Virus record (IMG/VR): IMGVR_UViG_3300047455_000186
Location: 1 to 56,264 of that record
Source of the DNA: a virus
Lineage: Duplodnaviria; Caudoviricetes
Reading direction: 5' to 3' (one strand)
Length of the DNA: 56,264 bases
The stretch's first letter is position 1; every line of letters begins with the position of its first letter. Positions 1 through 54,122 of the stretch are shown here, piece by piece. The translations under genes were made by a program, and so were the position numbers. The notes below the pieces were generated by a model. The model saw nothing but the letters and a program-made list of their open reading frames with translations. It did not search any database and was not told the origin of the DNA.

Positions 1-1655
1 CACAAGTAGGGACCGTGAGTTTTACAATAAATGAAGTTGTAGAATTTCCTGCATTTAAAATATCAAATGGGTTGGGCAATAACTGTGGTGCTGATGATGT
101 TGCTCCTTTATATACAGGAACAGCTGGCGGAAGTTACGTATGGGAAGGACACTATTGTGATCCAGATCATGCTGCAACGGATGTGACCATTACTACTTTT
201 TATGATGTAGGGGGAGCATGGGTTGCTGGGTTGCCCGCTAACTGGGCGTTTGCCAAAGATGACGTAAGTGGAGTAGCGGTAGATTATAGGTTTACACTAG
301 AATCATCAAACGTCGCTTCCGGCTTAACTAGAATAAAATTAGAAATAGAAGATGCCGGCGGAAATGTTGGAACGCCTTATATATTAGAAATTGGCGCTGC
401 ATTTGATACGCTGACTAAAACAGAGGTATTATTAGATTATTCTGGATCAGCACCAAACGCTACAGGTGGCGACTGGATATATCCTGGCGTTACATACGAT
501 AATATATGGGACGGTAAGAAATTTGAAAATTTAAGTACCGATACATATAACGGCCACACAACAACTGAAACTGCCACTGCAACTAGTGTTTCCCCCAGCG
601 GCGGTACTTTTGCGGCATTATACCCCTCAGCTACTTTTAGAATAGAAAAAACTACCTTCACCGACCCTTTAGAATTCTATTATAATTTAGAGCTTGACAG
701 CGGTGCTTTAACACCTACCTCTAATAATATAGACCCTGGGTTGACAATAGAATTTGACGCGGCTACTTTAAATTCTGCTTTTTCAAAAACAGGAACTGGT
801 GATCTTATATGGACACTAGAAGTTGAAGATATATTAAGAGCTCCTCTTGCGACTGGCAATATTACCAATATATCACCCAACGTAACCGGAGCTGGCCACA
901 CTTGTAATGATGGAGGAATGGCTCTAATAGCTTGGGGTTACGACACCGCTGGTACATATCACTCTTTCTTACTAAGAAGATTTGATATTGCAAACAACGG
1001 CGGCAGGCCTATCCAACACCAAACGCCCAACGTAGGTAGTCAGTTTTTTGCATCCAAATCATGGCAAGCGCCGTATGCGTACATATCAACACCGGCAGCA
1101 GTTGCAGGGCAATGTACTACTCCTGGCGCAACCTCGACATGGTGGCAAAGAGGCGGCAGTGGATGGCAGCTTGATGACACTGATGTAGATGAAACTAATG
1201 CTGGAGCAATATGGGATAAAAATAACATTCTTGCTAATTTACCAAATCAATCAGGTACAGGGCAAAATAATTACTCCTATATACCCGCCCTTCAAAACGC
1301 GAATTACCAAGCCAACAATTCTGTTGCTGGTTTATATAGGATGGATAACGCTACAGCAGCAACTATAGCGTCTACTATAACAAGCGGAAAAATAAACTTT
1401 ATGGTTGTTGGTCTTGGGTTTGCTAATGGCCCGCAATCTGGCGGAACCCCTGCTACCTGTGATCCAACAAAAGAGTACCAAGCTTGGTTGCATGGTGACG
1501 CGTGTCAAATGAGAATATTTACAGAAAACGCTGCCAGTACAAATCAAATAGAAATAAAAGACGGAGCTAATAGCTTCCAAGCAGGGGACGGTAAGTATGT
1601 TGAAATAGACGTATATGCAACTCCTGGATCAAACGCAACAGTATTTTCATTTTAA
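1..1655 (+). CDS. Virion structural/tail-associated protein, probably 5'-truncated by the window edge
   Basis: Frame is open from position 3 to the GTG at 15. Thr/Gly/Ser/Asn-rich, beta-type composition; first gene of the tail-fibre cluster. C-terminal part resembles the C-terminus of 23804..29584. Confidence 0.6.
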   Translation, partial: QVGTVSFTINEVVEFPAFKISNGLGNNCGADDVAPLYTGTAGGSYVWEGHYCDPDHAATDVTITTFYDVGGAWVAGLPANWAFAKDDVSGVAVDYRFTLESSNVASGLTRIKLEIEDAGGNVGTPYILEIGAAFDTLTKTEVLLDYSGSAPNATGGDWIYPGVTYDNIWDGKKFENLSTDTYNGHTTTETATATSVSPSGGTFAALYPSATFRIEKTTFTDPLEFYYNLELDSGALTPTSNNIDPGLTIEFDAATLNSAFSKTGTGDLIWTLEVEDILRAPLATGNITNISPNVTGAGHTCNDGGMALIAWGYDTAGTYHSFLLRRFDIANNGGRPIQHQTPNVGSQFFASKSWQAPYAYISTPAAVAGQCTTPGATSTWWQRGGSGWQLDDTDVDETNAGAIWDKNNILANLPNQSGTGQNNYSYIPALQNANYQANNSVAGLYRMDNATAATIASTITSGKINFMVVGLGFANGPQSGGTPATCDPTKEYQAWLHGDACQMRIFTENAASTNQIEIKDGANSFQAGDGKYVEIDVYATPGSNATVFSF

Positions 1656-12821: not shown

Positions 12822-13017
12822 TATAGGTAAAGACTATAAAAATGACGCCATGCACTACTCTGTTGGACAGGAAGTGTATGGTGGTCATACTATAGTTAAC
12901 ATTATAGAGGAAGAAGAAAAGTACTCTGTCTATATACAAAAAGGCAATGATGTTATACCCTGGAAAGATTTTAATAAAAATATGGCAATAGCCATTGAAT
13001 ATAATATTGAATACTAA
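12799..13017 (+). CDS. Hypothetical protein
   Basis: 72 aa; overlaps the previous gene and is coupled (TAATG) to the next. Confidence 0.65.
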   Translation: MTLLRKISIGKDYKNDAMHYSVGQEVYGGHTIVNIIEEEEKYSVYIQKGNDVIPWKDFNKNMAIAIEYNIEY

Positions 13018-13607: not shown

Positions 13608-13836
13608 AGCAGTTGAAGAATTAATTAAAGTAGCTAAAGAGGCTATAGTCGATTCAGATGATGATATATCTGCTGACAGGCTTAAGAACGCAGCTGCTAC
13701 AAAAAAGTTAGCTATATTTGACGCTTTCGAGATATTATCTCGTATACAAGATGAAGAAGCTATATTAGAAAATAAACCTAAAGAAGAAGAGAAAGCAAAA
13801 ACTTTTTCAGGGTTTGCAGAAAGAAGATCTAAATAA
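13561..13836 (+). CDS. Putative terminase small subunit
   Basis: Helical 91-aa ORF (start 13561) coupled by TAATG to the large terminase; positional inference. Confidence 0.45.
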   Translation: MNIKETKKNIIQAGHKAVEELIKVAKEAIVDSDDDISADRLKNAAATKKLAIFDAFEILSRIQDEEAILENKPKEEEKAKTFSGFAERRSK

Positions 13837-33673: not shown

Positions 33674-36600
33674 ATGTCAAAATATAAATTAGCAAGCGGA
33701 GAAGTTGTTGATACTAAGGACTATACTGAAAATCAACTTACTTACTTTAAATACAAAAATCCTGACGCAGGCATTGTGGAGGATTTTCAAAACGGAGCTG
33801 TGGGGACGGATGCGCCTGCAACTCCAGTAATGCCAAGTCGAGCATCCATAATTGCGGGTGCTCCTCCTGCAAACGAACCCCCAAAAAAAGATGGGGATTA
33901 CAATTTTCTACTTGGTTCTGTGGAATCAGTAGAGAATCGTAGTAATGGAATAGTAGCACCTAACTCATATTTAATTGAAAACCCTGAAGAACGATTAGTT
34001 TTAGAGGAGTACACAAATAAAAGAGGAAGAAAAGTAAAGAAATACGCTGAGCCATCTCAGGAAGAAATACTTAGGGAAACCATAGATAACTTAGATGAAC
34101 CTGAATTTATTAGTAATTCAAGGGGTAGAAAAGTAAATAATCCTAAATACGTAAAGCCAGAAAATAGACCTTCACTAGAGGTTCAGACCCAGGCTTATAT
34201 AAAAGACAACGATTTAGACATTGAGTTTACCAATAATTATTTTAATCCTAAAGGCGAAACTTGGTTTGTAGATAAGTACTTTGGTAAAAAAGAGCTTGCC
34301 AAAGCTGGTTTAACAGAACTTGAGATGCAGGACTTCCAGGGTATGTTAATGCGGGATGATTTTATTGATGGTTTCGAAGAAGATGTTGCTGATGGTGTAT
34401 ATGGCGAGCTTGGCGGTATGATATATACAGGAGACGATAAAAAAGTTATACAAGTAACTAAAGAAAGAACTTTAGCTAGGAAGCTTAGCCAATACATGGC
34501 AGACCGGGACGACAGGCTAAACAATAAAATGCTTGTCAATAATATACTTGAAAACCCGGGTGACTTTGATCAAAGCATGTCGTTAGACGAAGTTAGAGAA
34601 GAAGCTTACAAAAATAGCAATATTGGCTATACAGGGTATGATCAAGAGGCTGTAAAAGCATACTTAGGCCAAAATTTTCCAGCATTAATGGAAAAAAATG
34701 CAAAAAATCAAGAAAAGAAAAACGAAGCTTACTTAAAAAGACGAGCTTGGAACGCAAGCACAAACACAGCTGACCAAGGGGTGGCTAATTTAGGTGAGTT
34801 TATTAAAGGTTTAGGCACTGGTTTTTATAAAAAGCTAGACGAAACCGCAATATGGATAGACGATACTATAGGTATATTTGGCGGCAACGAAAGGGCCAAG
34901 CAAATGCGTTTATTGAATATAGAAGATGAAATAGCGGACACTGATTCGCTAGAATACTTTTATGCTAGTGGTAAAGGCACGACTATTGGTAGCGACACAT
35001 ATATTAAAGACGAAAGAGGCAATATATATAACACAACAGAAGGCGTAAATGTAAGTCAAATATTAACTCCATTAGAGCTAAAATCTATTTCACAAACAAT
35101 TGACGCCGAAGGCAAACCAATGGACGACTTTAGTTTTCGTGGTGGTGCTATTATGGGTGGTGAAGTAACTGGCGGTATTGTTTTTGATGTAATAGGCACA
35201 AAAGGCTTGGGTACCGCTAGGGTAGCGGCATCAGCTGGTTACTTATCAAAAGCAAATAAATTAAGGTCAGCCAAAGGTTTAAAAGACATAAGCACAAGAG
35301 CGAGAGGAGCTAAAGGTAGGTTTATAAGTACCAAAGAAACTTTCGGAATGAAATTGCCATTTAATGCGCAAATGGTTGACGCTAGCATGTACTACTCCTT
35401 TGTAGGTGCTGTTACTGGGTATGAAAACACCATGAAAGCAGCTATGCAGGCAGGCCTCTCTAATGAAGTTGCTGAAAAATTAGCAGACGAAGCTCAGTTG
35501 TCAATGATGGCTCTTTACGGGGTTACAACTCCTATTAACCCAAGAATTGCTTTTGTAAACAAACTTGATGATATACTTATAAAAAACAAAGTTTTTGCAA
35601 CTGCTGTAAATGAGTATAAAAAAACAGGTAGTCAATTATCCTTTATCGAAAGTATTAAAAATCAAATTAAACAAACAGGCTTAACAACCACAGGTAAAGG
35701 AGTTGCGTTTGTTAAAGAAGGAACCAAAGAGTTTATTCAAGAAAACGTACAACAATTTGGGGAGGTCGAACTTGTTAATGAAAAAATAAACGAATCGGCT
35801 GGTATGGAATTAATGACCGCTGATTATAGCAAAGATGATTTTATTAACACATCTATATTATCTTTTGCAGCAGGCGGATTATTAGGCGGCTTAAGCGCCC
35901 CAGGATCACGTGTTAATTCTAATAAAAGATTACAAAATTTATATATACTTTCCCGCGATTTAAAAGGCACAAAAAAACGCTTTGACAGAATGATTGACGC
36001 TGGCAGATTGTCACAAGAAGATGCAGACGGTATACTAGAGCAGGCCAAAGCGGTTGGGAATTCAAGCAATAAGTTTCCTGCTTGGATGTTAAAGACTCCA
36101 GATGCCCTTATAGAAGCTGCGGTTGTGCAATCTAAAATAGAGGCAGCTACTAACGAAAGATCTCAGCTGGCGCCTCCTATGCGCACCGATGTTGATGCTC
36201 GCTTAGAAGGATTAAACAACGAATTGTTAGCTATAAGAAATAAAGCCGCTGATGAGTTAGTTGTTAAAGAAACCGAAACTATACAAGGTATTGTTGGTAA
36301 AGAAAATGTAACAGTTTATAATTCTAAAGCAGAAATGGAAGCTGCTGGATTATCAGACCTGGATATGAATTCAGATGGGTTTATTGAGGTTGATGGCAAA
36401 ATAATTATAAACAGAGAGCAAGCGGCTAATGCGCAAGCTATATCGGTCGCTTCACATGAGTTACTGCATAAAGTATTAAAGTCTGAATTTAAAAATAATC
36501 CTGAAATGAAAAGGGTTGTTGATGAATTTAAGCAAATACTAAAAAATAAAGGTGTATTTCAGCAAATTGAAACGCGAGCAGAGATGTATCGCCAGGAGGG

Positions 36601-39600
36601 AATAGGAGATGTAGATGGCGCCGATATGGACGAGTATTTTACATTCTTTTCTGATGCTATATCCAAAAACGAAATACCTTTCCAGGCGTTAGAAGAGTCA
36701 CAATGGGTTAAAATAGGTAAAGCTATAGCCAATTTGTTTAACACTAGATTTGGAACTAAGAACTTAAAGTTCAATAGCGGACAACAAGTATTTGATTTTA
36801 TTAAAGACTACCAAGCTGGTATTGAAAAAGGCAAACTTACGGGTCAAGCTAAAAAGAAATTAAAGGCAGGCGCTGAAGTTGAAGGCACAAATAAAAAATC
36901 TGTTAGTGACGCTGCTAAAAAAAGCAACGCTAAACTTGATGCGGTACCCAAAGACAAGGTTACAGGCGCTGTAGCGCAAAACACTATAGCTACTGAGTTA
37001 CCTAAAATGGTAAAAGCACAAATAGCCAAAAGGTTTAATTTACCGCCGAGTCAATTAAATGAATTTACCGATGATGTTATATTTAAAATGTACGCAGGCC
37101 AAGAAACCACTAAGTATGACGGAAGAGGAACATTAAGTGGATTTTTAGGAGGCAGAATAAAGTTTAGAATTGAAGACGTTGTAAGAGAGGAATATAAAAG
37201 ACCACAACAAGAAAGATTATATTTAGGTACTGTTGATAATTTGCAGGCATCAGATCAAAAAGATCTTGAAGGTAAAAAAACAGCAAAACAAACAGTGCAA
37301 AAACCTGAATTTGTAAACTTAGTTGAAAGCAAAGTATTGCCAGATGAAATGGCTGCTAAAGTAAAGCAAAAAGTTGTATCTACAACTCGTGTACTTAGAT
37401 CTAGAATTGATGCTGCCGTTTCCTTAAATAGAACAGTAACTCCTTTAATAGCTGAAATTAAAAAAGAAATTGGTAAGCAAGCAGACATTGAATTTAAGAA
37501 AATGCTTGGAGCTAAAAAGAATAATGAGCTTAGGGATAATTTACTTAAACTTAAAAAACCCATTCTTGAAAACCTTACAACTACATTTTTAATGCAAGCC
37601 ATGCCGTTTGCAATACAAAAACAAGTTGATGGTAGATTTACTTCTGATTGGCAAGGGCAAAAAATTGATAGAGAAAGCGTAGAGACTGATAAAGCGGGTA
37701 GGACTTCAGGTGCAGAAATTGTAAGAAGAATACCTAACCCGGTAAACAATGTAAGCGATCAGGATTTCTTAGGTTACATGTTCAAAGGTGAAGAAGTTAT
37801 TCGTGGCCGTAAGGAAGCTTTAGCAAAAGCGTTAGCAGAAGAATACGCTTTTGATTTATACAACCAAGAGTTGAAAAATGAAGATAGCGAAATTCGTCAA
37901 GCGTTTGAAGCTAATCAAACAAGGCTCGGTGTTGAATTATCTGAAAATCTAGCACAAGAATTTTCAAGGCAATCCGAAAGAGGCAATGTAAAAAGATCAG
38001 TATCTAGGCTAAGCAAAGAAGATGCTATAAAGTGGGAAGCTGGTAAAGATAAATTCTTTGTGGATATCAAAGCATTACTTAATTCTAATGGCGCCATTAA
38101 AGAAAACGCTATAAAGAAAGCGCATAAAAATAATTATCCTGATTTTACAGAAGCTCAACATAAGGCCATATCTAAGCAATTTTTTAGATTACTTAAGCCA
38201 TTAAAAGGTATAGATGTTGAAACTTCACTCAAAGAAGAGGGGAAAACATTTGAAGAATATTTAGTAGATATAGCTAAAGATATAGATACCAATGAAACAA
38301 TAGCTAAAATGACTGGCGTTGAAGGATCTATTGCTTCTTTGTTTGAAAATTACAATAATGTAATGGACGCACAAACGGCGATTGAAGATGTATTAAAAAC
38401 TTTAACTATACAGGAAGCGGTTGCTTTTACAAGTACCTCATTTGCTAATTCAGGTAGAATTGGATTATGGGTTGATGGGGAATTGGATTTTAGCAAGACG
38501 CATCGCTCCGATTTATACTCAGGCAAAGAGCAAGTTATAGAGGCACTTAACAGAGCAGGCTTTAAAATTAAAAGCATATCCAATGCTGAAATAACGCTAC
38601 AAGACGGTACTGTATTAAAAAGAGAGTACTCGGCAACAGGCAATGTTCTTAAGGGACATCTAACCGGTAAATTTGACGCGGAAGCTGACAAGGCTAACGC
38701 AAATGCGGCTTGGAAGTACACAACCGCAATGATTAAAGGTATTAAAAATTCGACTCCAGAGGTTCAAGCTATGGTTATGGCTTCGCTAAATTCAGGTACA
38801 AATACAGCTTTAAGAGCGGCCGCGCCTGTTACATATAGAAGTTCAGTGTTGCCTTCTCAAATAACAAAAGACTATAGGTATGAGCATGGAGTTCCAGCAA
38901 GAGTGGTACTTGCTCATTTGTATCAATCAATAGTAAATGGTGATACTAGCATAGATATAAAAGCTTTAAAGGCAGATTATCAAGTAGCTATTATCCCAGT
39001 TGAGATGGATAAAGTTATAGGCAAATCAGGTTATCAGCAAGTTATGATAGCAGGGTATAAGCCAGGCGAAACGCCTTGGTGGAAAAGATATTATAACTTT
39101 GCAACAAGAGGCAAAATACAATACGCGTTAGAATCATTAGAAGACGGGTCTATTATCGGACAACAATATGCTGACTACTTTAATCAAAAAGGTGTTAAGC
39201 CTGAGGTTAAAGCAAACGCTGAGGCTGAGGTTAAAAAAATAACTACCCAGCAAAAAGCTATTAACAACGCTCGCAAGCGTTCTTATACTAAAAATCCTAA
39301 AGGTATTAGTGTATACGATTTTGATGACACACTTGCATTTAGCAAAAGTCAAGTTATAGTTATAATGCCTGCTGAAAAATCCATGCTTGATATCGCAGCA
39401 AGAAGATTATTTGGAGAAACAGCTCTTAAAAACAAACCAGGCTTTTTGAAAACGTTCGACAGCCTTAATGAAGAGCAACAAGCAAAAGTTTTAAAAGACG
39501 TACCCGGAGCAACAAAGAGAATTACGCCTGCTGAATTTGCTAAGAAGGGAGAAGAGCTAACGGCACAAGGAGCTAAATTTGATTTTAGTGAATTTAACAA

Positions 39601-42151
39601 AGTAGTCGAAGGAACACCGGGTCCATTAGCACCGAGGCTTAAAAAAGCAATTGAAAAATTTGGTAATAAAAATATATTTGTATTAACAGCGAGACCGCAA
39701 GAATCGGCAGTTGCTATACACGCATTTTTAAAAGGCCTAGGTTTAGAAATACCGCTTGAAAATATAACTGGACTGGCTAATGGTGCTCCAGCTGCAAAGG
39801 CTGCTTGGATGGTGACAAAAGTAGCTGATGGCTTTAATGACTTTTATTTTGTTGATGACCATCTTGGTAATGTTAAAGCAGTTAAAGATATTCTTAATAC
39901 TTTTGATGTAAAAGGCAAAGTACAACAAGCCAGAGTAAAAAGATCAGTAACATTAAGCAAAGAGCTTAACGATATGGTTGAGCGTAACAAAGGCGCTAAA
40001 TCAGAAGCTATTTACTCTAAAATAAAAGCTAGAAAAGACGGAGCTAAAAAAGGCAGGTTTAAATTCTTTGTTCCTTATGGCGCTGAAGACTTTAGGGGTT
40101 TAACATCATATACATTAGCTGGCAAAGGCAAGCAAGGGGAAGCTGATCAAAAATTCTTTGAAGACAATTTAGTAGTGCCGTACATGAGAGGTATATCTGC
40201 TATGGAAAAAGCTAGGCGAGCTCTTAAAAATGATTTCGCTATGTTATTAAAAATGTTTCCTGGAATGAAAAAACGTTTAGGTAAACAAATTGGCGATACA
40301 GATTACACTGTCGATCAAGCGGTGCGTGTGTATTTATGGACACAGCAAGGGCAGGAAGTCCCTGGTATATCTAAAAGAGACCAAAAGAAATTAAATAGCC
40401 TTGTGGCAAATGATCCTGATTTATCAGCGTTTGCCGACGGCCTTCAAACAATATCAAAGCAAGAACAATGGCCAACCCCCGCAGAATACTGGGCAGCAGG
40501 GTCTGTGTTAAAAGATATTAATCAAATAAACGAGGTTGGAACAAGATCTGAATACTTACAAGAATTTAACAATAATGTAGATATTATATTTGACGAAAAC
40601 AATTTAACAAAGCTGGAAGCTACATATGGCACTCGTTATGTAAACGCCTTAAAGAATTCTATAGCTCGAATGAAGTCCGGTCGCAACAGACCAGCGCAGC
40701 CTGGCGCTTACGAACAGCAATGGTTGAACTGGGTTAATAACTCTGTAGGTACTATAATGTTCTTTAACCGCAGATCAGCAGCAATGCAGATGTTGTCATT
40801 TGCTAACTTTGTAAACTGGAGCGATAACAATCCATTAAAAGCTGGTATTGCATTTGCAAATCAACCGGCATATTGGAGCGCATGGTCAAAAATATTTAAT
40901 TCCGACAAACTTAAAGAACGTCGCGGTGGTTTAAAATCTGATGTACAAGAGCAAGAAATTGCTAACCAAGCTAAAAATAGTAAAGACAAAGCAAGCGCTG
41001 TGATTGCATACTTATTAAAAATAGGTTTTACGCCTACGCAAATTGCGGATAGTTTTGCTATTGCAACAGGAGGAGCTACATTCTTAATTAACAGAACAAA
41101 AACTTATAAAAAGCAAGGTTTATCAAAGGCGGAAGCGGAAGCAAAAGCATTTGAAGACTTTAGTGCCATCTCCGATGAGACACAACAATCAGGTGATCCT
41201 ATGTTGGTATCTGCACAACAGTCGAGCCATTTAGGACGTCTTATATTGGCTTTCCAAAACACGCCGATGCAATACACTAGATTGATGAAAAAAGCTGGCC
41301 AGGACCTTATAAACGGTCGTGGAGATGCTAAGACTAATATTAGCAAGATAGTCTATTACGGGTTTATACAAAACCTTATATTTAGTGCGCTGCAAAATTC
41401 ATTATTCGCTATGTTACCAGGATTTGATGATGAAGAAGAAGACGATGAACAATACGAAAAAACTATTAATACAAAGACTGAAAGAATTGTTAATTCTATG
41501 GTAGACACTATTCTTAGAGGATCTGGATTAACAGGGGCGGTAGTATCAACATTAAAAAATGTTATTAATAGATATTATAAAGAAGAGAAAAAAGGATTTA
41601 CAGCAGATCATGCTTACACATTATTAGAGTTAGCAAACGTATCTCCACCTATAGGATCTAAAATGAGAAAAGTATACGGGGCAATTCAAACTAAAAAGTT
41701 TGATAAAGACGTTATAGCCGCGCAGGGTTGGGATGTTACATTACACGGTAGATTTAATATATCTCCTAATTACGAAATATTAGCATCACTTTCATCCGCT
41801 GGATTAAACTTGCCACTAGATAGAGCGTTAGCCGAAATAGACGGTATATCTGAAGCCCTTGATGCTAGGAATACATCTTATCAAAGATTAGCTTTAGGAT
41901 TAGGATGGAGAACATGGGATGTAAAAGCCAACAAGGAAGAGGAAGAACTAGTAAAAGCTGTAGCAAAAATTAAAAGAAAAAAAGCTGGTATAGAAAAAGC
42001 CAAAGCTACAAGAGCACAAAAGAAAAAAGAAGAGCAAGGGAGAGTGGCTAACATGACTGAAAAAGAATACAACGAATACATGGACGCCAAGATATTAAAA
42101 AGAAGAGAGGCCGCTAGAAAAGCCGCTGAAACTAGACGACAAAATAAATAA
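33674..42151 (+). CDS. Giant multidomain internal virion protein (polyvalent-protein-like)
   Basis: 2825 aa; HELLH at about 36455; HAD motifs DFDDTL (39317), LTAR (about 39686) and FVDD (about 39854); Gly/Ala-rich segments typical of large ejection proteins. Confidence 0.75.
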   Translation: MSKYKLASGEVVDTKDYTENQLTYFKYKNPDAGIVEDFQNGAVGTDAPATPVMPSRASIIAGAPPANEPPKKDGDYNFLLGSVESVENRSNGIVAPNSYLIENPEERLVLEEYTNKRGRKVKKYAEPSQEEILRETIDNLDEPEFISNSRGRKVNNPKYVKPENRPSLEVQTQAYIKDNDLDIEFTNNYFNPKGETWFVDKYFGKKELAKAGLTELEMQDFQGMLMRDDFIDGFEEDVADGVYGELGGMIYTGDDKKVIQVTKERTLARKLSQYMADRDDRLNNKMLVNNILENPGDFDQSMSLDEVREEAYKNSNIGYTGYDQEAVKAYLGQNFPALMEKNAKNQEKKNEAYLKRRAWNASTNTADQGVANLGEFIKGLGTGFYKKLDETAIWIDDTIGIFGGNERAKQMRLLNIEDEIADTDSLEYFYASGKGTTIGSDTYIKDERGNIYNTTEGVNVSQILTPLELKSISQTIDAEGKPMDDFSFRGGAIMGGEVTGGIVFDVIGTKGLGTARVAASAGYLSKANKLRSAKGLKDISTRARGAKGRFISTKETFGMKLPFNAQMVDASMYYSFVGAVTGYENTMKAAMQAGLSNEVAEKLADEAQLSMMALYGVTTPINPRIAFVNKLDDILIKNKVFATAVNEYKKTGSQLSFIESIKNQIKQTGLTTTGKGVAFVKEGTKEFIQENVQQFGEVELVNEKINESAGMELMTADYSKDDFINTSILSFAAGGLLGGLSAPGSRVNSNKRLQNLYILSRDLKGTKKRFDRMIDAGRLSQEDADGILEQAKAVGNSSNKFPAWMLKTPDALIEAAVVQSKIEAATNERSQLAPPMRTDVDARLEGLNNELLAIRNKAADELVVKETETIQGIVGKENVTVYNSKAEMEAAGLSDLDMNSDGFIEVDGKIIINREQAANAQAISVASHELLHKVLKSEFKNNPEMKRVVDEFKQILKNKGVFQQIETRAEMYRQEGIGDVDGADMDEYFTFFSDAISKNEIPFQALEESQWVKIGKAIANLFNTRFGTKNLKFNSGQQVFDFIKDYQAGIEKGKLTGQAKKKLKAGAEVEGTNKKSVSDAAKKSNAKLDAVPKDKVTGAVAQNTIATELPKMVKAQIAKRFNLPPSQLNEFTDDVIFKMYAGQETTKYDGRGTLSGFLGGRIKFRIEDVVREEYKRPQQERLYLGTVDNLQASDQKDLEGKKTAKQTVQKPEFVNLVESKVLPDEMAAKVKQKVVSTTRVLRSRIDAAVSLNRTVTPLIAEIKKEIGKQADIEFKKMLGAKKNNELRDNLLKLKKPILENLTTTFLMQAMPFAIQKQVDGRFTSDWQGQKIDRESVETDKAGRTSGAEIVRRIPNPVNNVSDQDFLGYMFKGEEVIRGRKEALAKALAEEYAFDLYNQELKNEDSEIRQAFEANQTRLGVELSENLAQEFSRQSERGNVKRSVSRLSKEDAIKWEAGKDKFFVDIKALLNSNGAIKENAIKKAHKNNYPDFTEAQHKAISKQFFRLLKPLKGIDVETSLKEEGKTFEEYLVDIAKDIDTNETIAKMTGVEGSIASLFENYNNVMDAQTAIEDVLKTLTIQEAVAFTSTSFANSGRIGLWVDGELDFSKTHRSDLYSGKEQVIEALNRAGFKIKSISNAEITLQDGTVLKREYSATGNVLKGHLTGKFDAEADKANANAAWKYTTAMIKGIKNSTPEVQAMVMASLNSGTNTALRAAAPVTYRSSVLPSQITKDYRYEHGVPARVVLAHLYQSIVNGDTSIDIKALKADYQVAIIPVEMDKVIGKSGYQQVMIAGYKPGETPWWKRYYNFATRGKIQYALESLEDGSIIGQQYADYFNQKGVKPEVKANAEAEVKKITTQQKAINNARKRSYTKNPKGISVYDFDDTLAFSKSQVIVIMPAEKSMLDIAARRLFGETALKNKPGFLKTFDSLNEEQQAKVLKDVPGATKRITPAEFAKKGEELTAQGAKFDFSEFNKVVEGTPGPLAPRLKKAIEKFGNKNIFVLTARPQESAVAIHAFLKGLGLEIPLENITGLANGAPAAKAAWMVTKVADGFNDFYFVDDHLGNVKAVKDILNTFDVKGKVQQARVKRSVTLSKELNDMVERNKGAKSEAIYSKIKARKDGAKKGRFKFFVPYGAEDFRGLTSYTLAGKGKQGEADQKFFEDNLVVPYMRGISAMEKARRALKNDFAMLLKMFPGMKKRLGKQIGDTDYTVDQAVRVYLWTQQGQEVPGISKRDQKKLNSLVANDPDLSAFADGLQTISKQEQWPTPAEYWAAGSVLKDINQINEVGTRSEYLQEFNNNVDIIFDENNLTKLEATYGTRYVNALKNSIARMKSGRNRPAQPGAYEQQWLNWVNNSVGTIMFFNRRSAAMQMLSFANFVNWSDNNPLKAGIAFANQPAYWSAWSKIFNSDKLKERRGGLKSDVQEQEIANQAKNSKDKASAVIAYLLKIGFTPTQIADSFAIATGGATFLINRTKTYKKQGLSKAEAEAKAFEDFSAISDETQQSGDPMLVSAQQSSHLGRLILAFQNTPMQYTRLMKKAGQDLINGRGDAKTNISKIVYYGFIQNLIFSALQNSLFAMLPGFDDEEEDDEQYEKTINTKTERIVNSMVDTILRGSGLTGAVVSTLKNVINRYYKEEKKGFTADHAYTLLELANVSPPIGSKMRKVYGAIQTKKFDKDVIAAQGWDVTLHGRFNISPNYEILASLSSAGLNLPLDRALAEIDGISEALDARNTSYQRLALGLGWRTWDVKANKEEEELVKAVAKIKRKKAGIEKAKATRAQKKKEEQGRVANMTEKEYNEYMDAKILKRREAARKAAETRRQNK

Positions 42152-43793: not shown

Positions 43794-45512
43794 CTAACCA
43801 TCACACGCAAGGCAATCTTCACTCATCGCTTGCTGTGCAATATCTCCACGAAGAACACTCTCTGTTCTCGTATAATACAAAGTCTTTATTCCGTTCTTCC
43901 ATGCTTGCATGTGCACCTGGTTAATCCATTTTGGTGTAGCAACGCTTGGAAACGCGAGATTCAAACTAACCGACTGATCTATGTACTGCTGGCGAATGCC
44001 TGCTTGATTTACTAGCTCTAGTTGGTTTATTTCTTTAAAGGTTTTAAATACTTCTTTGGCTGGTATATCATGAGCTAACACTATATCGTCTAGCTCTTTA
44101 ATATCTTGTACACTACCGCCATCAGCAAGTATCTTATCCCATATTTCATTTGTATTTAACTTATGCTTTCTTAAAAGCTTTAAGAGCGTGGGGTTCTTCC
44201 TAATGAACGTACCCTTCGCACTTTGTTCCGTGAAAACATTAGCGGCCCAAGGCTCAATACCAGGACTAACGTTACCGCTAAGCTTACTATTAGACACAGT
44301 AGGAGCAACAGCCCTAAGATGGGTGTTACGATAACCAGTGCCAGCACACCAAAGAGGTTCGCCGTAAATTTCCGCAAGGTCCATAGATGCTCGTTCGCTT
44401 TCGATTTTGATTTGCGAAAATATTTTCCTAGTTTCAAATTGAGCAAGTAAACCTTCAAAAGGAATTCCCTTTTCTTGGAGATACGTGTGCCATCCGAGCA
44501 CACCCAATCCAAGCGCTCGTCCCTTTGAAGCAGAACGAACGGCATTTTCAAAACCTCTAAGTCCTTTGGCCCTTTGAATAAATTCCTCCATAACGCCGTC
44601 AAGAAACCACGTGGCGTCGTATATAAGGTTAGTACCTTTCCATTCTTCATATTTAGCTAAATTTAATGATGATAAGCAACAAACAAAGCTATGACTCTCA
44701 TCTGTGTGTAATGTTATCTCACTACAGATATTTGTCATATGTACTTTTAATCCGTTTTCTTTATATGCTTTTGGATTTGCCTTGTTAGTGTTTCCTTTAA
44801 ACATGATATACGGTTCTCCAGTTGCCTTTCGCTTTCTAAGTAGTTTACTCCATCTATTTCTAGCATTCGCATCTCCTTGTTCAAGCTTACGCATAAACTT
44901 ATCGCCAACAACTGCGCACTGATGTAGATTAAGCGATTGTCTGTTAACATCGCCTTTAGGTTCTCTGATTTCCAACCACTCCTCGAAGTCCTCGTGGTCA
45001 ATGTTGATATTAACACTGGCAGCTCCCCTTCTGACTGATCCTTGATTAGTTGCAAGAATTGTTGAGTCGTATATTTTGCAAAAGGGGACAACCCCGTCTG
45101 ATGTTCCATTACCTGTAATTGTTGCGCCAGCGGGTCTGATTTGATTTACGCCAATGCCAACTCCACCGCCGTGCTTAGCGAGTAGCATCATCTCTAAATT
45201 CTTTTGCCCTATATCTTGTATTGAGTCAGCAACATCAATACCAAAGCAACTAATAGGCAGACCGCGATCGGTGCCAGTATTACTAAGAACCGGTGAAGCC
45301 AAGCATAGCCAGCCGTTCCAGATATATTCAAAAAAAGTTTCCGCCATTTCTGGCTTATATAATCTGCGAGCAACTGTCTTAGCAACCCGCATGTAAGCGT
45401 CTCTCGGTGATTCGTCGTACAATAAATATCCCCCGGATATAGTCTTCTTGTATACGTCGTTATTACCCCATGCCGGGTAATCCTCACCTTTTTTCCAGTT
45501 TTCATTCCACAT
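43794..45512 (-). CDS. nrdA: Class I ribonucleotide reductase alpha subunit
   Basis: ISCF, GGGVG, TNICSEI, CCLSS, APTVSNS, KTLYY and C-terminal CLAC; likely start at 45512 (MWNENW); no ATP cone. Confidence 0.95.
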   Translation of the reverse strand: MWNENWKKGEDYPAWGNNDVYKKTISGGYLLYDESPRDAYMRVAKTVARRLYKPEMAETFFEYIWNGWLCLASPVLSNTGTDRGLPISCFGIDVADSIQDIGQKNLEMMLLAKHGGGVGIGVNQIRPAGATITGNGTSDGVVPFCKIYDSTILATNQGSVRRGAASVNINIDHEDFEEWLEIREPKGDVNRQSLNLHQCAVVGDKFMRKLEQGDANARNRWSKLLRKRKATGEPYIMFKGNTNKANPKAYKENGLKVHMTNICSEITLHTDESHSFVCCLSSLNLAKYEEWKGTNLIYDATWFLDGVMEEFIQRAKGLRGFENAVRSASKGRALGLGVLGWHTYLQEKGIPFEGLLAQFETRKIFSQIKIESERASMDLAEIYGEPLWCAGTGYRNTHLRAVAPTVSNSKLSGNVSPGIEPWAANVFTEQSAKGTFIRKNPTLLKLLRKHKLNTNEIWDKILADGGSVQDIKELDDIVLAHDIPAKEVFKTFKEINQLELVNQAGIRQQYIDQSVSLNLAFPSVATPKWINQVHMQAWKNGIKTLYYTRTESVLRGDIAQQAMSEDCLACDG

Positions 45513-45784
45513 TATGTAAAGTATAGTATTGTGTAAGCTATTGCTACGTTTAAATTGACTGCCACTAAGTTCCATTGCTTTGCAACAAATACTTGTGGTA
45601 TTGATATTATGCCGGCAATAATATATACAACTATGCCGGTCGGATCTGGCAGGAGGTGGGGAGCTGTCATCATAAATCCAGTCCCCATATATCCTAACCT
45701 ATTTGCTATCCTCTCGTGAGGCTTTAATCTTCTTTGTCTTACAAGCGCTTTTAATAAACTACGCTTAGTTGTAGAGGTCTTCAT
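45512..45784 (-). CDS. Small membrane protein between nrdB and nrdA
   Basis: 90 aa; basic N-terminus and about three hydrophobic segments; stop overlaps the nrdA start. Confidence 0.65.
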   Translation of the reverse strand: MKTSTTKRSLLKALVRQRRLKPHERIANRLGYMGTGFMMTAPHLLPDPTGIVVYIIAGIISIPQVFVAKQWNLVAVNLNVAIAYTILYFT

Positions 45785-45807
45785 ATATTTCTTCTTCGGT
45801 TATTAAA

Positions 45808-46776
45808 TTACCAAATGTTCTCGAAGTCTTCACCTTCACCAGCTTTCGAATAGTCCGTCGGCCGAACCGCGAAAAAATCAGTATGAGTGACCCCGCCGGT
45901 AAGATGATAGAACCAATCAAGATTAGCCGCTGCATCTTTGTCATATGCGAAGTACGAGCCAAGATCAACATAACCAAGTTCCACCAGTTTTTCATTTGTT
46001 CTTTTCTTTATAAAGTGTTTTAAATCATTTGACTTAATGCCTTCAATGTCACCCATTTCAAACATCTTATCTATATACTTGCATTCAAGTTTTACCATTG
46101 TTTCGGCAGCGGCAATGATATCTTCTCGACATAAATTCAATAATTGATTATTTTCACTGCACATATCGCGAAACAACTTACAGCCCATTTTACTGTGCAA
46201 AGATTCATCTCTTACGCTCCACTTCATTTGCTGCCCTATACCTTTTAATAAATTCCTTAATTGAAAAGAATAGAGAACAGCAAAAGCAGAATATAAACTA
46301 ACCCCCTCAGCAAAAGCGCTAAAAACAGCAAGAGACTTGCCAATACCAACAGAGCTTGTCCCGCCATAAGCAACCAGGTTATCAAACCTTTCAGCAGTTG
46401 CAGGCTCATGGAGAAAGGCTTCATAATTTTCAAGACCAAGTGTTTCATTTAAATAACTATAGGCTACAGCATGTATTGTTTCTTGTGATCCGAACATCAT
46501 AGCCATTTGCTGTATTTCGTGTTTAGGAAACCATGATACCACTTTTTGTGTCCAGTAATCTGAAACAGCACATTCGGTTTGTGCAAAACCTAATAGTATA
46601 TTGCCTACTAGATTCTTTTCTTCTGGTGTTAATTTTTCTTTCCAATCTTTTATATCGCCTTGCATTGGTATTTCAGTATGTAACCAGAATGCTTGTGCTT
46701 GTTTTAACCAACCTTCCGTATAATAGTCAGGATATTCAAATGGTTTGTACGCTACGCGCTCATCAAACAATCCCAT
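45808..46776 (-). CDS. nrdB: Class I ribonucleotide reductase beta subunit
   Basis: FWLHTEI, QETIHAVAY, AEGV.LYSAF, RDESLH and DFF motifs. Confidence 0.95.
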   Translation of the reverse strand: MGLFDERVAYKPFEYPDYYTEGWLKQAQAFWLHTEIPMQGDIKDWKEKLTPEEKNLVGNILLGFAQTECAVSDYWTQKVVSWFPKHEIQQMAMMFGSQETIHAVAYSYLNETLGLENYEAFLHEPATAERFDNLVAYGGTSSVGIGKSLAVFSAFAEGVSLYSAFAVLYSFQLRNLLKGIGQQMKWSVRDESLHSKMGCKLFRDMCSENNQLLNLCREDIIAAAETMVKLECKYIDKMFEMGDIEGIKSNDLKHFIKKRTNEKLVELGYVDLGSYFAYDKDAAANLDWFYHLTGGVTHTDFFAVRPTDYSKAGEGEDFENIW

Positions 46777-46925
46777 TATTTATATATTTCAATTGCTAAA
46801 TCTATAAACGGCAAATAAAACACATGCGTTGTTTGATTATCCTCTTCATAACTTCTTGCGCCAAATAATATACCTGGATAAAATCCAAATGATACTGCCC
46901 AGGCCGGGTTTTTTTCTTTATCCAT
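46776..46925 (-). CDS. 49-aa hypothetical protein (not in ORF track)
   Basis: MDKEKNPAWAVSFGFYPGILFGARSYEEDNQTTHVFYLPFIDLAIEIYK; stop overlaps the nrdB start. Confidence 0.65.
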   Translation of the reverse strand: MDKEKNPAWAVSFGFYPGILFGARSYEEDNQTTHVFYLPFIDLAIEIYK

Positions 46926-47091
46926 ATACTTTTATATTGTATTTATCCATTATTTCTACTAATTCTTTGTATTTTACTTTACCTCGTACGTCCCAGCTCC
47001 ATTTAATAAACTTATCAATTTGACGCTCAGCATACTTTTGTCTTGCTAACCGTTTCGCTTCGAAAGGATTATGCTTATTGTCTCGTCGCAT
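46918..47091 (-). CDS. 57-aa hypothetical basic protein (not in ORF track)
   Basis: MRRDNKHNPFEAKRLARQKYAERQIDKFIKWSWDVRGKVKYKELVEIMDKYNIKVYG; fills the gap in the gene run. Confidence 0.55.
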   Translation of the reverse strand: MRRDNKHNPFEAKRLARQKYAERQIDKFIKWSWDVRGKVKYKELVEIMDKYNIKVYG

Positions 47092-47507
47092 TCTTTTTGA
47101 TTTTGTGGTTTGTACAATGTTACATTAGGGAATTGACTCATAACTAATCTTTTAAACAACTTCCAACGCATTGGGAAAGATTCATTAGCTCTGCCTTTTG
47201 TTTCAATTATAAAATCTTCGCCAATAAAATCAGGTGTGTACTTAATAGGTAATATGCGTTTGCATCCTCTGTTCTTATAATCTCCTTTGCCATTAGCTTG
47301 CCTTTCATACACTTCATTATCAAAATGAAAACCAGCAAGCAAAACAAATGTTTCACCTTCGTATTTGGCTTTAACTTTTGCTTTTTTTAAGGCCATATAC
47401 ATATAACGCTCAAGACCTGAAGCAAAGTTGATACCATCATATGATACCTTCTTTGCTTGTACCGGGCCACGCTTTTTGCTTTTTCTTTTATAGGGTTGTC
47501 TCCTCAT
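47046..47507 (-). CDS. T7 endonuclease I-like Holliday junction resolvase
   Basis: FASGLE...YTPDF...IIETKG PD-(D/E)xK signature. Confidence 0.85.
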   Translation of the reverse strand: MRRQPYKRKSKKRGPVQAKKVSYDGINFASGLERYMYMALKKAKVKAKYEGETFVLLAGFHFDNEVYERQANGKGDYKNRGCKRILPIKYTPDFIGEDFIIETKGRANESFPMRWKLFKRLVMSQFPNVTLYKPQNQKECDETISIILSKRNG

Positions 47508-47751
47508 GGATTTCTATATTTCTTAATAATGCTTCCTGCATTTCTTCCGTGCTTGATTCTTTTAATTTTTGCATGTATAGCACAGCATCCATTAATTCTT
47601 CTTGCAAGTGATTAATCCAAGCAAACAAATTTGATTTGTCATCGTTAAGCGTTACGCCGTACTTTGCAAAGCCTACGTCTGATCTTGATACAAATTTATT
47701 TACAACACGTTCTACAACGGGATCTCTAAACTCTATTTCTTTTTTAGTCAT
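47488..47751 (-). CDS. Small all-alpha NTP-pyrophosphatase-like protein
   Basis: 'RS.VG.AKYGVTL...HLQEELMDAVLY' with EExxD motif. Confidence 0.6.
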   Translation of the reverse strand: MTKKEIEFRDPVVERVVNKFVSRSDVGFAKYGVTLNDDKSNLFAWINHLQEELMDAVLYMQKLKESSTEEMQEALLRNIEIHEETTL

Positions 47752-48569
47752 AACATTTCTTTTAATAAATCAGTAGCTTGGTCAGCAGTTATTCCTGTTT
47801 TAACAAATGTACCATTGTGCATTACGCCAGTTCTATTTGCTATTTCAACATAAGCGCCATCAATACAGTCTTCTATATTGTAACCCTCTTGAAAAGCTAA
47901 ATTAGTTAATACAACAACCATATCACCTATAGCGTCTTGTATTTCAGGCTTGTCATTGACAAGTAACGCAGCTGCCAGCTCGCCAGCTTCTTCTATAAGT
48001 TTAACATATTGCGTATGTGAATTGCCATTTTCATATATACCTCTTTCAGCAGCCCACGATCGTATTAAATCGAATCTTTCGCAGCCCGTGTCGTTGCTTA
48101 TACATTTTTCTTTTGGAGTATGCTCTAGATTAAAAAAGGCCTCATAGAAAGCCTTATTGTAAATATAGCTTCGATCATCATTGTACATCGAGGTTCTTGC
48201 ATTTTGCATTATCCAGGTTATATGTTCTTTTTTTAGTTTAAACTTATAATCTGGAGTTTCCCATTCTAATCCTATGTTATCCATAAGATTTCCTTTAAGC
48301 TTATTTATAGGAACAGGGAATGTTGTTGTTTGTTCTGTTGGATTTACTCTCATATTTGATTTAAATAAATTTTTATATAATGTTCTGTCTTTTCTGTAGC
48401 CATAAGACTGTTGAAGTTCTATCTCTTTGTTAGATATTAAATTAATATCATCACTTGTAAATAAAACTTCGTATTCGCCTGGCGCATAACCTTGTTGCTC
48501 CGTAACTCTCTTATTAAGATTACGTGTAACTCCGATTTTTTTACCAGGAATGTGATAAATGTTGTACAT
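47748..48569 (-). CDS. MazG-like NTP pyrophosphohydrolase with N-terminal GIY-YIG-like domain
   Basis: C-terminal KLIEEAGEL...DAIGDMVVVL; N-terminal IYHIPGKKIGVTRNLNKR; likely start at 48569. Confidence 0.75.
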   Translation of the reverse strand: MYNIYHIPGKKIGVTRNLNKRVTEQQGYAPGEYEVLFTSDDINLISNKEIELQQSYGYRKDRTLYKNLFKSNMRVNPTEQTTTFPVPINKLKGNLMDNIGLEWETPDYKFKLKKEHITWIMQNARTSMYNDDRSYIYNKAFYEAFFNLEHTPKEKCISNDTGCERFDLIRSWAAERGIYENGNSHTQYVKLIEEAGELAAALLVNDKPEIQDAIGDMVVVLTNLAFQEGYNIEDCIDGAYVEIANRTGVMHNGTFVKTGITADQATDLLKEML

Positions 48570-48576
48570 ATTTTTG

Positions 48577-49398
48577 TTAGTTACCAACACTTAAATCTGC
48601 TTTTATTGCAGGTAAAGGATTGTATTTAATTAGTTTAATATCTTCGGCCTCTGGAATATATAAGTGATTGTTATTGTTAAACAAACCTTTGCGTAATTCT
48701 AATTTAGGCAATACTCTTTTTGGTCTATCTAAATATACTTTAGCTTGTTCTAAATGATTATTATATAAATGGCAATCGCCAAGTTGACCAATAAGTTTAC
48801 CAGCTTTTAAGTTAGCTCCTTTAGCTAACATTTCCAGTAGTAAACCGTACATTGTAATATCGTATGGTAAACCTAAAAATACATCAGCTGATCTTTGCTG
48901 CCACATAAGATCTATAACACCATTGTTTATATAAACTTGAAAAGCATAATGGCAAGGAGGCAATACCATATCATTCATCTCGTGTGGAGCCCATGCGCTA
49001 ACCATAAGACGTCTAGAGTCTGGATTAGTATTGATGCTATACACAAGATTTTTAAGCTGATCTACGCCATTAAAATCACGCCATTGTTTTCCATATACAG
49101 GGCCAAGAGTTTCATCTGTTCTGCCTGAGCGTTCATAATCTGGTCTCCAGTATTTAACACCGTTATCTTCTAAATACTTAAGATCAGTTCTACCCTGTAA
49201 TATCCAAAGCAATTCTGTTCTTGCCGCATTAAAACTTATTCTTTTTCCTGTAAGTATAGGGAACCCAAGTGACATATCATGCTTAATCGTTCTTCCGAAG
49301 ACAGACTTCGTCCCAGTCCCTGTTCTATCCGCCTTGTCAGATCCTCCGTAGAGAATTCCTGCCATAAGTCCTCTATATTCATTTTCTATATTTATCAT
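48577..49398 (-). CDS. thyA: Thymidylate synthase
   Basis: DRTGTGT, LGPVYGKQWR, DSRR, LPPCH, QRSADVFLGLP and HLYNNH. Confidence 0.97.
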   Translation of the reverse strand: MINIENEYRGLMAGILYGGSDKADRTGTGTKSVFGRTIKHDMSLGFPILTGKRISFNAARTELLWILQGRTDLKYLEDNGVKYWRPDYERSGRTDETLGPVYGKQWRDFNGVDQLKNLVYSINTNPDSRRLMVSAWAPHEMNDMVLPPCHYAFQVYINNGVIDLMWQQRSADVFLGLPYDITMYGLLLEMLAKGANLKAGKLIGQLGDCHLYNNHLEQAKVYLDRPKRVLPKLELRKGLFNNNNHLYIPEAEDIKLIKYNPLPAIKADLSVGN

Positions 49399-49654
49399 AA
49401 TAATATTTACACATTTTGTAGTATTCTACCCATATTGTTTTTCTACAATACTTGCTTGGCGATATATTTGGTTTTTCCCATTTTTGATATGGGCCTAAGC
49501 TAATAGCTATATGCCAGTGATCAGTATCGTTTTGTATACCATAAGGCGATATTCTTATGTTGTTTTTAACGCAATATCTATATGCTTTCCATTCTACGTC
49601 GCTAGCTGTATAAGGAGGCATTGGTTTCGCCCGTTTGCCATATAAACTTGGCAT
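49379..49654 (-). CDS. Hypothetical protein
   Basis: 91 aa, coupled between the primase-helicase and thyA genes. Confidence 0.65.
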   Translation of the reverse strand: MPSLYGKRAKPMPPYTASDVEWKAYRYCVKNNIRISPYGIQNDTDHWHIAISLGPYQKWEKPNISPSKYCRKTIWVEYYKMCKYYYDKYRK

Positions 49655-53369: not shown

Positions 53370-54122
53370 TTACAGATAATCAATCACTTGGTTTGCGTCA
53401 GTGTTAGCGATAAGTTTATTTATAGCCTCCCTTTTTATCTGTGAAACACGTACATTTGCAGTGTTTACATTTATATTTAATTTGCCCGCTATATAATTAG
53501 CGGAGTGCTTGTCGCAATCCAAACCATATGATAATCTCAATACTTCATATTCAATACCTGTTAAGTGTTGTTTCATTAAACTTAACAAATAAGCATTGAG
53601 TAAATTTATATTGTATGGCTCAGAATTATCTGGTATTTGAAACAATGGGTTTTCTTCCTCTGTATTATAATTGGCATCTATACTAGAGAATATAGAATTA
53701 AAAAACATAGTAACGATTTTTTCGTCTTTAGGATTTTTACGTATTTCATTTAACTTGTGTTCAGGAATACGTATATCGCCCCGGTTAATATCAATTGCAC
53801 GTCTTATAGCCCCTTTAATTCTTTTGCTAAAAAAGCTTTTTAAAGTTTTTTCAATATCTTCAGAATCAATGAGCTTATCCCATTCTAATTTATCTACCGC
53901 TAACGTTAAACCCTTGTTGCCCTCTTGTATTAAATCATTTATACTTAATACACCAGAGGCTTGGTCAGAGGTCGCAAACTTACGGGCTAAGTTTTCCACA
54001 AGAGGCATGAACTTTATAATCATTTCATTTCTTGTGTAGTAATCATAAAACTTATTTTCAGGCATAGACCGTTTAAGATCTTCTTTGTACCTTATATAGT
54101 TTTGTACATTGTACTTTTTCAT
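53370..54122 (-). CDS. Phage sigma70-family RNA polymerase sigma factor
   Basis: Region 2 'LVENLARKF...DLIQEG..GL..AVDK...IKGAIRRAI', then IRIP, and region 4 'VLRLSYGL...RVSQIKREAINKL'. Confidence 0.9.
   Translation of the reverse strand: MKKYNVQNYIRYKEDLKRSMPENKFYDYYTRNEMIIKFMPLVENLARKFATSDQASGVLSINDLIQEGNKGLTLAVDKLEWDKLIDSEDIEKTLKSFFSKRIKGAIRRAIDINRGDIRIPEHKLNEIRKNPKDEKIVTMFFNSIFSSIDANYNTEEENPLFQIPDNSEPYNINLLNAYLLSLMKQHLTGIEYEVLRLSYGLDCDKHSANYIAGKLNINVNTANVRVSQIKREAINKLIANTDANQVIDYL

Follow-up and report, generated by a model that had tools for sequence, protein, structure and literature searches.

We analysed a 56,264-nucleotide stretch of DNA (the window) that is the whole IMG/VR record IMGVR_UViG_3300047455_000186, with a completeness of ~88% according to CheckV; its source is an uncultured marine crAss-like podophage. 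A giant open reading frame (ORF) at 33674..42151 (+) encodes a protein of 2,825 amino acids (aa) and contains, in frame, four similar pentapeptides. A first-pass annotation had described this protein as a polyprotein with the linker K-[KR]-S-[VY]-[ST] at each domain boundary and had proposed that the linker is a cleavage site, possibly for a zincin embedded in the same chain. Here we describe the modules of the protein, the conservation and concerted variation of the pentapeptides among homologues and the exchange of modules between them, and we weigh proteolytic processing at these sites, which we consider probable, against other readings.

Four junction pentapeptides in a modular giant protein

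The giant ORF is divided as follows, the folds being those of predicted models:

33674..36295 (+), aa 1-874: N-terminal, mostly helical region, variable in homologues, many of which align from positions 800-1050 on
36296..36865 (+), aa 875-1064: candidate zincin-like metallopeptidase core, with HELLH at aa 928-932 (nucleotides 36455-36469), Y972 and E987
36893..36907 (+), aa 1074-1078: junction motif 1, KKSVS (sequence match)
36908..37990 (+), aa 1079-1439: module 2, helical (model residues 37-395)
37991..38005 (+), aa 1440-1444: junction motif 2, KRSVS (sequence match)
38006..39274 (+), aa 1445-1867: module 3, the EHGVP module, predicted alpha/beta fold with enzyme-like invariant residues
39275..39289 (+), aa 1868-1872: junction motif 3, KRSYT (sequence match)
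39290..39937 (+), aa 1873-2088: module 4, predicted HAD-superfamily phosphatase (DFDDT at aa 1882 and fold match)
39938..39952 (+), aa 2089-2093: junction motif 4, KRSVT (sequence match)
39953..42148 (+), aa 2094-2825: C-terminal body, the most conserved part of the family

The four pentapeptides lie in the one ORF where the first-pass annotation had placed them, starting at aa 1074, 1440, 1868 and 2089. The pattern K[KR]S[VY][ST], written post hoc from the sites themselves, has four matches in the giant protein against 0.023 expected per shuffled protein; of 5,000 shuffles of the protein, none had at least three matches and one had at least two. A relaxed pattern, K[KR]S[VLIYAFM][STG], has four matches among all six-frame ORFs of at least 80 aa in the window, and all four are in the giant ORF. 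In five related loci (21-29 kb), patterns adapted to the motif classes described below matched inside the giant ORF only. The shuffles, the window-wide scan and the clustering of the motifs in homologues rule out a chance origin.

We next consider the structure of the protein, using two AlphaFold2 models that cover aa 1041-2240 (predicted local distance difference test score (pLDDT) 73) and aa 1-1110 (pLDDT 71). The polypeptide comprises several unrelated globular units, namely the zincin-like core, two folded modules, the HAD module and the C-terminal body, with low-confidence linkers between them. Site 1 falls inside a stretch of pLDDT<50 (aa 1065-1077), with a helix from aa 1079. Site 2 overlaps such a stretch (model residues 396-402) between helices 386-394 and 408-430 (model numbering), and site 4 opens another (model 1047-1087) directly after the last HAD strand. 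Sites 1, 2 and 4 thus lie in low-confidence stretches between structured elements, in line with the domain boundaries predicted in the first pass; site 3 is taken up with the points that weigh against processing.

The same annotation had the HAD domain begin just past KRSYT and reach KRSVT, and the predicted fold agrees, occupying approximately aa 1872-2093. This fold (model 832/834..1053) is matched by many HAD hydrolases with a Foldseek probability of 0.9-0.99. Its best structural match is the phosphatase of T4 Pnkp (5uj0_B; Z 10.2, root-mean-square deviation 2.9, 124 aligned residues), with 4xrp_A (Z 9.9) and 1ltq_A (Z 9.4) close by. The HAD substrate is not inferable from these scores, since they barely exceed those of many other HAD hydrolases, 46 chains of which match at Z of at least 8 (range 8-10.2). 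Motif I, DFDDT (aa 1882-1886), is at the end of the first strand (model strand 837-842). Candidates for motifs II-IV (Thr/Ser, Lys and an acidic pair) are T2005, K2049 and D2056, alignment positions whose conservation reaches at least 90% in a set of 45 sequences. On the basis of the model, module 4 is a HAD-superfamily phosphatase nearest to the 3'-phosphatase domain of polynucleotide kinase-phosphatase.

The label 'sigma-like', given earlier to aa 1079-1439 (module 2), found no support: no sigma Pfam family matched at E up to 5, and hhalign of the family profile against the phage's sigma-like ORF returned a probability of 0.3% (E 0.2), in sequence and profile comparisons that distant kinship could escape. 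That separate ORF, at 53370-54122 (-), matches the RNA polymerase sigma-factor PHROG phrog_351 (E 1.6e-18). Module 3 is predicted with a pLDDT of 80-95 over model residues 520-790, and its residues E1737, H1738, Y1769, P1775, D1779, R1805 and Y1806, invariant in 45 sequences, look like an enzyme active site. Pfam searches with the separate segments of modules 2 and 3 gave no match, and Atlas scores of 0.85 are leads only; the lists from the whole-model fold search were occupied by HAD matches.

For the protein as a whole, comparison with PHROGs yielded 0 families, and sequence searches against solved structures, crAss proteins included, with the single sequence and with a profile of 58 sequences gave nothing below E 0.1. 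Pfam models of LPD or metallopeptidase (MPTase) domains did not match it at E up to 1. A feature search in the Atlas gave, as leads only, clusters with LPD39 in 28% of members (score 0.93) and with LPD38 in 88% (score 0.92). The start of the C-terminal body, aa 2116-2209 (40019-40300, +), is rich in invariant residues and has a borderline match to the Pfam family T6SS_Tgi2PP (type VI secretion system immunity protein), at 27.0 bits with a cut-off of 27.

Conservation, exchange and concerted change at the junctions

Database searches found 1,235 relatives of the giant protein of similar length and, with the C-terminal body alone, 2,293 representatives (50%-identity clusters) at E<=1e-3. The best 150 matches to the C-terminal body all have it as the C-terminal part of the protein listed. 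Each of the 24 viral loci examined has a single giant open frame, of 2,486-3,112 aa in 23 and of 2,093 aa in one (L007) that ends at the contig edge. Homologues of 400-1,500 aa begin at internal methionines of conserved sequence or sit on short contigs; they look like fragments and bear neither for nor against stand-alone modules. C-terminal body homologues (42-44% identity) are also present on three 12-16 kb contigs from metagenome-assembled genomes (L026, L027 and L028) labelled Crocinitomicaceae, Maricaulis and Thiothrix. They probably stem from phages and were binned with bacteria, and because the labels belong to three different phyla, no host can be inferred from them.

We mapped motif positions on an alignment of the best 120 relatives, with the window protein as reference. 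KRS-type motifs cluster at reference positions 1072-75 (60/120 proteins), 1440 (55/120), 1868 (32/120) and 2085-91 (56/120), and there is one further weak cluster at 1019 (15/120). Relatives without the KRS type have K-F-S or K-Y-S at matching positions, that is, at 1078-81 (7/120), 1440 (36/120), 1851-75 (~30/120) and 2089 (36/120), and K-x-S is present at site 2 in ~91/120 and at site 4 in ~92/120. Just ahead of the C-terminal body, KFS was found in 54, KYS in 10 and another K-x-S in 23 of 137 more distant representatives. Serine and lysine are the invariant motif positions, with K1440 invariant in 45 sequences. As read from these alignments, the family as a whole uses a wider signal, h-K-[R/K or F/Y]-S, in which h stands for a hydrophobic or small residue and two further residues follow the S. 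The linker K-[KR]-S-[VY]-[ST] of the first pass is therefore present at its four boundaries, but as the version of the window's subclade only. In 14 relatives with another N-terminal module, N-F-Q-K-Y-S-[KR]-x occurs at approximately reference position 636; this may be a fifth junction, which the window protein does not have.

Homology to the window protein breaks off and resumes near three of the junctions. Taking as breakpoints the internal ends of high-scoring segment pairs (HSPs; 110 ends in total) in BLASTP comparisons with 119 relatives, we found an end at positions 1440-1456 of the window protein (query), at or directly past site 2, in 56/119. Similarity resumes at query 1845-1862, ~15 residues ahead of site 3, in 45/119 and at query 2070-2095, at site 4, in 17/119; 10 relatives resume near 1949. 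Among 105 relatives that have sites 2 and 4, both middle modules are kept in 22, the first is replaced in 66, both are replaced in 13 and the HAD is absent from 4. Coverage-filtered BLAST clustering of the region between sites 2 and 3 (slot A) gave three families of 350-450 aa, module 3 belonging to one of them, in 70 scorable proteins (44, 21 and 5); the two larger families are each found with both motif classes. In one relative (P0100) the HAD is replaced by a P-loop kinase of the AAA_33/Zeta type (aa 1940-2085), which stands between motifs at 1931 and 2131. Two others (P0049 and P0089) have a kinase of similar kind inside the HAD module, with no motif at its borders, which indicates that the motif delimits units and not every domain border. 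Alignment of homologues thus bears out, for sites 2-4, the expectation that the motif keeps its position while modules swap. The outcomes that the first-pass annotation had named as contrary to its reading at the level of sequence, motifs inside folded domains or without conservation in homologues, were not what we observed.

The variant of the motif, K-R/K-S or K-F/Y-S, is common to all sites within a protein. At position 2 of sites 2 and 4 (n=98), 65 proteins have R/K at both sites, 31 have F/Y at both and 2 are mixed. The classes are also nearly exclusive in 219 full-length proteins, where 31 of the 45 with at least three KRS-type motifs have zero KFS-type motifs. A tree of the C-terminal body has seven class changes per site and seven independent contrasts, of which 5-6 are concordant and 0 opposed (sign test p ~0.03). 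Positions 4 and 5 lean in the same direction, with contrasts too few for significance, and there are subgroups in which several sites share Gly or Ala at position 5.

Module exchange and concerted variants might have their origin in the DNA and not in the peptide. The motif would then mark a recombination joint: short conserved border DNA would supply the microhomology for swapping modules, gene conversion would keep its copies alike, and the peptide would have no function of its own. The coincidence of homology breaks with sites 2-4 and the concerted variants per protein are consistent with such a joint, as are the codons of V-K-R-S-V, 15 nucleotides that are identical at junction 2 (37988-38002) and junction 4 (39935-39949); the probability of all five codons being shared is ~0.007 from the codon usage of the ORF, a post hoc value uncorrected for the several pairs inspected. 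However, homologues differ in how they encode the invariant Ser at a given site, some using TCN and some AGY, and adjacent codons vary synonymously; we conclude that selection acts on the peptide. The codons of site 3 in the window also differ from those of sites 2 and 4, a length of 15 nucleotides is short for homologous exchange and the kinase insertions inside the HAD module leave no border motif. We regard a recombination joint as highly unlikely.

Probable processing at the junctions and its candidate protease

A recurrent linker peptide that is conserved as protein and switches in step argues for a single reading factor with drifting specificity, for which a protease is the simplest candidate. 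We propose that the product of the giant ORF is a polyvalent internal virion protein whose modules fold independently, that the pentapeptides are the clade's version of a family-wide junction signal in exposed linkers and that these signals would be endoproteolytic processing sites. Cleavage would yield five pieces: an N-terminal part with the zincin, two modules of no assigned function, a Pnkp-like HAD and the C-terminal body. With an identical signal at each module border, recombination could swap modules and processing would be kept. Processing at the motifs, by whatever enzyme, is in our view probable; we infer it, together with a scissile bond and its timing, from the position, conservation and concerted variation of the motifs and from the exchange of modules between them.

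The likeliest protease would be the zincin of the same chain, which could work in cis or on neighbouring copies, either inside the capsid or once ejected. An alignment of 58 sequences shows no variation at H928, E929, H932, Y972 and E987, and HExxH is present in 119/120 homologues. The predicted core has strands 879-882, 903-906 and 909-913, the HELLH helix 925-941 and helices to 1064, the Glu helix included, and stops ~10 residues ahead of site 1. No Pfam peptidase model matched this core, and Foldseek of the whole 1,110-aa N-terminal model against the PDB gave no match at E<=0.001 and listed no peptidase. From the invariant residues and the fitting predicted topology, aa 875-1064 is a candidate zincin-like metallopeptidase. 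Scans of 32 other ORFs with Pfam and/or PHROGs found no peptidase family, several of these ORFs being without assignment and the record ~88% complete; by these searches the embedded zincin is the sole recognisable peptidase. A complex prediction for the zincin (aa 870-1066) with junction 2 (aa 1418-1467) gave a score of 0.00 against a mark of 0.32, without controls, and weighs neither way. We give processing with the embedded zincin as the enzyme slightly less than an even chance.

Several observations weigh against processing at the motifs or against the zincin as its agent. Site 3, with a pLDDT of ~74, is flanked by a conserved helix (1849-1866) and the first strand of the HAD; the predicted boundary linker is not seen there, and the closest low-confidence linker is at 1840-1846. 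Site 1 is not a homology breakpoint, with an HSP end in 3/119 relatives, and module exchange at the motifs does not extend to it. The definition of the motif was broadened once the data were seen; even so, 50 of the 137 further representatives have no K-x-S ahead of the C-terminal body, many of them still having x-[FY]-S-K, and 31 of the 219 full-length family members carry neither motif class. No cleavage product is known, and no cultured relative that could supply virion proteomics was found: neither the whole protein nor its C-terminal body has a tblastn match in 50,697 GenBank phage records. The HExxH subtype shows no association with motif class, HELLH being found in both R and F classes. 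A tree of the zincin region needs 7 and 6 class changes for sites 2 and 4, the corresponding numbers being 7 and 6 for module 2, 7 and 7 for the C-terminal body, 6 and 5 for the N-terminus and 4 and 3 for the HAD. Of the five regions, the HAD tracks motif class best. HAD columns and zincin column 981 were among the top in a column-wise information scan, which is confounded by descent. In a published case, excerpts of which we consulted, the virion RNA polymerase of phage N4 has an MPTase domain and is packaged uncleaved (PMC5512222).

Since neither the subtype nor the tree of the zincin follows motif class, the motifs might be cleaved by another protease, whether a phage maturation protease that escaped recognition or one of the host acting after ejection, with the zincin as an effector directed at the cell wall or at host proteins. 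A small residue, serine, after a specificity residue recalls the sites of capsid maturation proteases, and the unassigned ORF at 18509-19711 has the position at which genes for such proteases are often found. According to Iyer et al., some MPTase domains may be effectors (PMC5512222). Set against this are the lack of a peptidase family in the 32 other ORFs scanned, in a record from which a gene could be missing, and the confinement of the motif, which is found in no other ORF of the window, capsid and portal included. Maturation proteases usually act on several substrates. We consider cleavage by another protease unlikely.

A signal that is never cut could also account for a shared junction peptide. 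Each linker would then carry a docking or modification site, for example a phosphorylatable Ser preceded by basic residues or a contact for the capsid interior, the portal or the phage chaperonin, that organises packaging, unfolding or refolding module by module. The invariance of Ser and Lys fits such a site; the phage encodes GroEL- and GroES-like proteins, some relatives have P-loop kinases and the HAD-region tree fits motif class best (4 and 3 changes versus 6-7). The N4 virion RNA polymerase is likewise ejected uncleaved, according to the same excerpts (PMC5512222). However, the resemblance of the HAD module is to polynucleotide 3'-phosphatases, and the kinases belong to the AAA_33/Zeta type, which acts on small molecules or polynucleotides, and are not protein kinases. 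The K-F-S variants, moreover, are unfit for a basophilic phosphorylation site, and no partner was found. An uncut signal is, in our judgement, quite unlikely.

Processing at the motifs remains the reading we prefer. In its fullest form, every cargo module would be flanked by a 'cut here' code that is private to the family and co-evolves (K-R-S in one lineage, K-F-S in most others), effectors such as an RNA-end-healing phosphatase/kinase would be swapped as cassettes and the protein's own zincin would free each of them in the host. We regard this combined proposal as rather doubtful.

Genome setting, known systems and meaning

Upstream of the giant ORF, the window contains the following genes:

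13836-16046 (+): large terminase, structural module
16050-18476 (+): portal, structural module
18509-19711: ORF between the portal and capsid genes, without family assignment
19734-21170 (+): capsid-like protein, structural module
23804-29584 (+): homologue of the crAss-type muzzle protein (PF25731, E 2.2e-10)

The order terminase, portal, capsid-like protein and muzzle is the layout of a crAss-like structural module, and four smaller ORFs lie between the muzzle gene and the giant ORF. In crAss001, genes past the muzzle encode virion-packaged cargo proteins, gp45-gp50, that are ejected into the host, as described in the parts of the source consulted (PMC10172136). Because the giant ORF lies downstream of the muzzle homologue, as do these cargo genes, its position makes its product a candidate internal virion (cargo or ejection) protein. 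A search for the DFDxD motif of virion polymerases found no D[FY]DxD in any six-frame ORF of at least 80 aa in this ~88% complete record; the giant protein has a single DxDxD, at aa 178, and the DFDDT at 1882 is HAD motif I. Given also the sigma-factor match of the ORF at 53370-54122 (-), the crAss-related lineage of the window may redirect the host polymerase rather than inject its own.

The window also encodes a GroEL-type chaperonin at 7652-9205 (+; PF00118, E 7.7e-48) and a GroES-like co-chaperonin at 13017-13607 (+; phrog_13932), a pair that might help to fold the giant protein or the capsid. A minus-strand block at 43794-51375 holds the large and small subunits of ribonucleotide reductase, a resolvase-like nuclease, a MazG-like pyrophosphatase, thymidylate synthase and a primase/helicase; it is an ordinary phage replication and nucleotide module.

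By its architecture, the giant protein groups with the polyvalent virion proteins described by Iyer, Burroughs, Anand, de Souza and Aravind (2017). It resembles them as a very large phage polypeptide that joins a zincin domain (HExxH...E), here a candidate one, to unrelated enzymatic or uncharacterised modules. For such proteins of phages and conjugative elements, the excerpts consulted propose autoproteolytic release of modules by the zincin MPTase (PMC5512222). What sets the window family apart is a defined junction motif whose variants are concerted. No cleavage site is named in the main text of the paper, supplements aside; 'cleavage site' occurs in one reference title and 'linker' nowhere. 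Zincin cutting of such polyproteins is thus already published, whereas a junction code with concerted variants is new in the literature we searched, supplements aside.

Comparable proteins are known from other crAss-like phages. In the parts of the source consulted, all of these phages are reported to have a large virion protein bearing DFDxD, and the fused gp65-gp66-gp67 polyproteins of some are described as 'likely cleaved' into components (Drobysheva et al., bioRxiv 10.1101/2020.03.07.982082). The window shares with gp65 (zincin), gp66 (virion RNA polymerase) and gp67 of the Cellulophaga phage phi14:2 its crAss-like character, a large (candidate) virion protein encoded after the tail and muzzle genes and a candidate zincin-like domain. 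Its giant ORF occupies the place at which crAss-like phages have their zincin, polymerase and cargo genes. Unlike that type, it has no DFDxD, and its middle modules are a predicted HAD phosphatase and unassigned folds instead of an RNA polymerase. A second comparison is with the head and ejection proteins of giant phages, such as gp245 of Salmonella phage SPN3US, which are cut by a prohead protease according to the excerpts consulted (PMC10052503, PMC7411985). Those too are internal virion proteins for ejection, cut there at short consensus sites during maturation. In SPN3US-type phages, as far as these excerpts go, the prohead protease is separate and recognisable and cuts other head proteins as well, whereas here none was recognised and the motif is limited to one protein.

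The HAD module has its own counterparts in T4 polynucleotide kinase-phosphatase and bacterial Pnkp1 (5uj0, 1ltq and 4xrp), in that it matches the 3'-phosphatase and that relatives carry an AAA_33-type P-loop kinase. In contrast to those enzymes, in which the kinase is N-terminal to the HAD, the kinase in relatives is nested within it. The HAD module and the kinase of relatives suggest an ejected enzyme for healing nucleic-acid ends, perhaps directed against host anticodon or RNA nucleases.

The idea of processing by a zincin has been proposed since 2017 and, as no cleavage site is named in the literature searched, has so far been hard to test. The junction motif gives exact residues and predicted neo-termini, and so makes this older hypothesis directly testable. 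It also offers a practical way of finding module limits in a family that is very large and unannotated, and would allow the effector enzymes of abundant marine phages to be catalogued. Were the motif uncut, a linker signal shared between junctions and changing in concert would still want explaining. If the combined proposal of a co-evolving code cut by the protein's own zincin is right, no processing code of polyvalent virion proteins would have been defined earlier than this one, and the window would represent a crAss-related lineage that ejects effector enzymes in place of a virion RNA polymerase.

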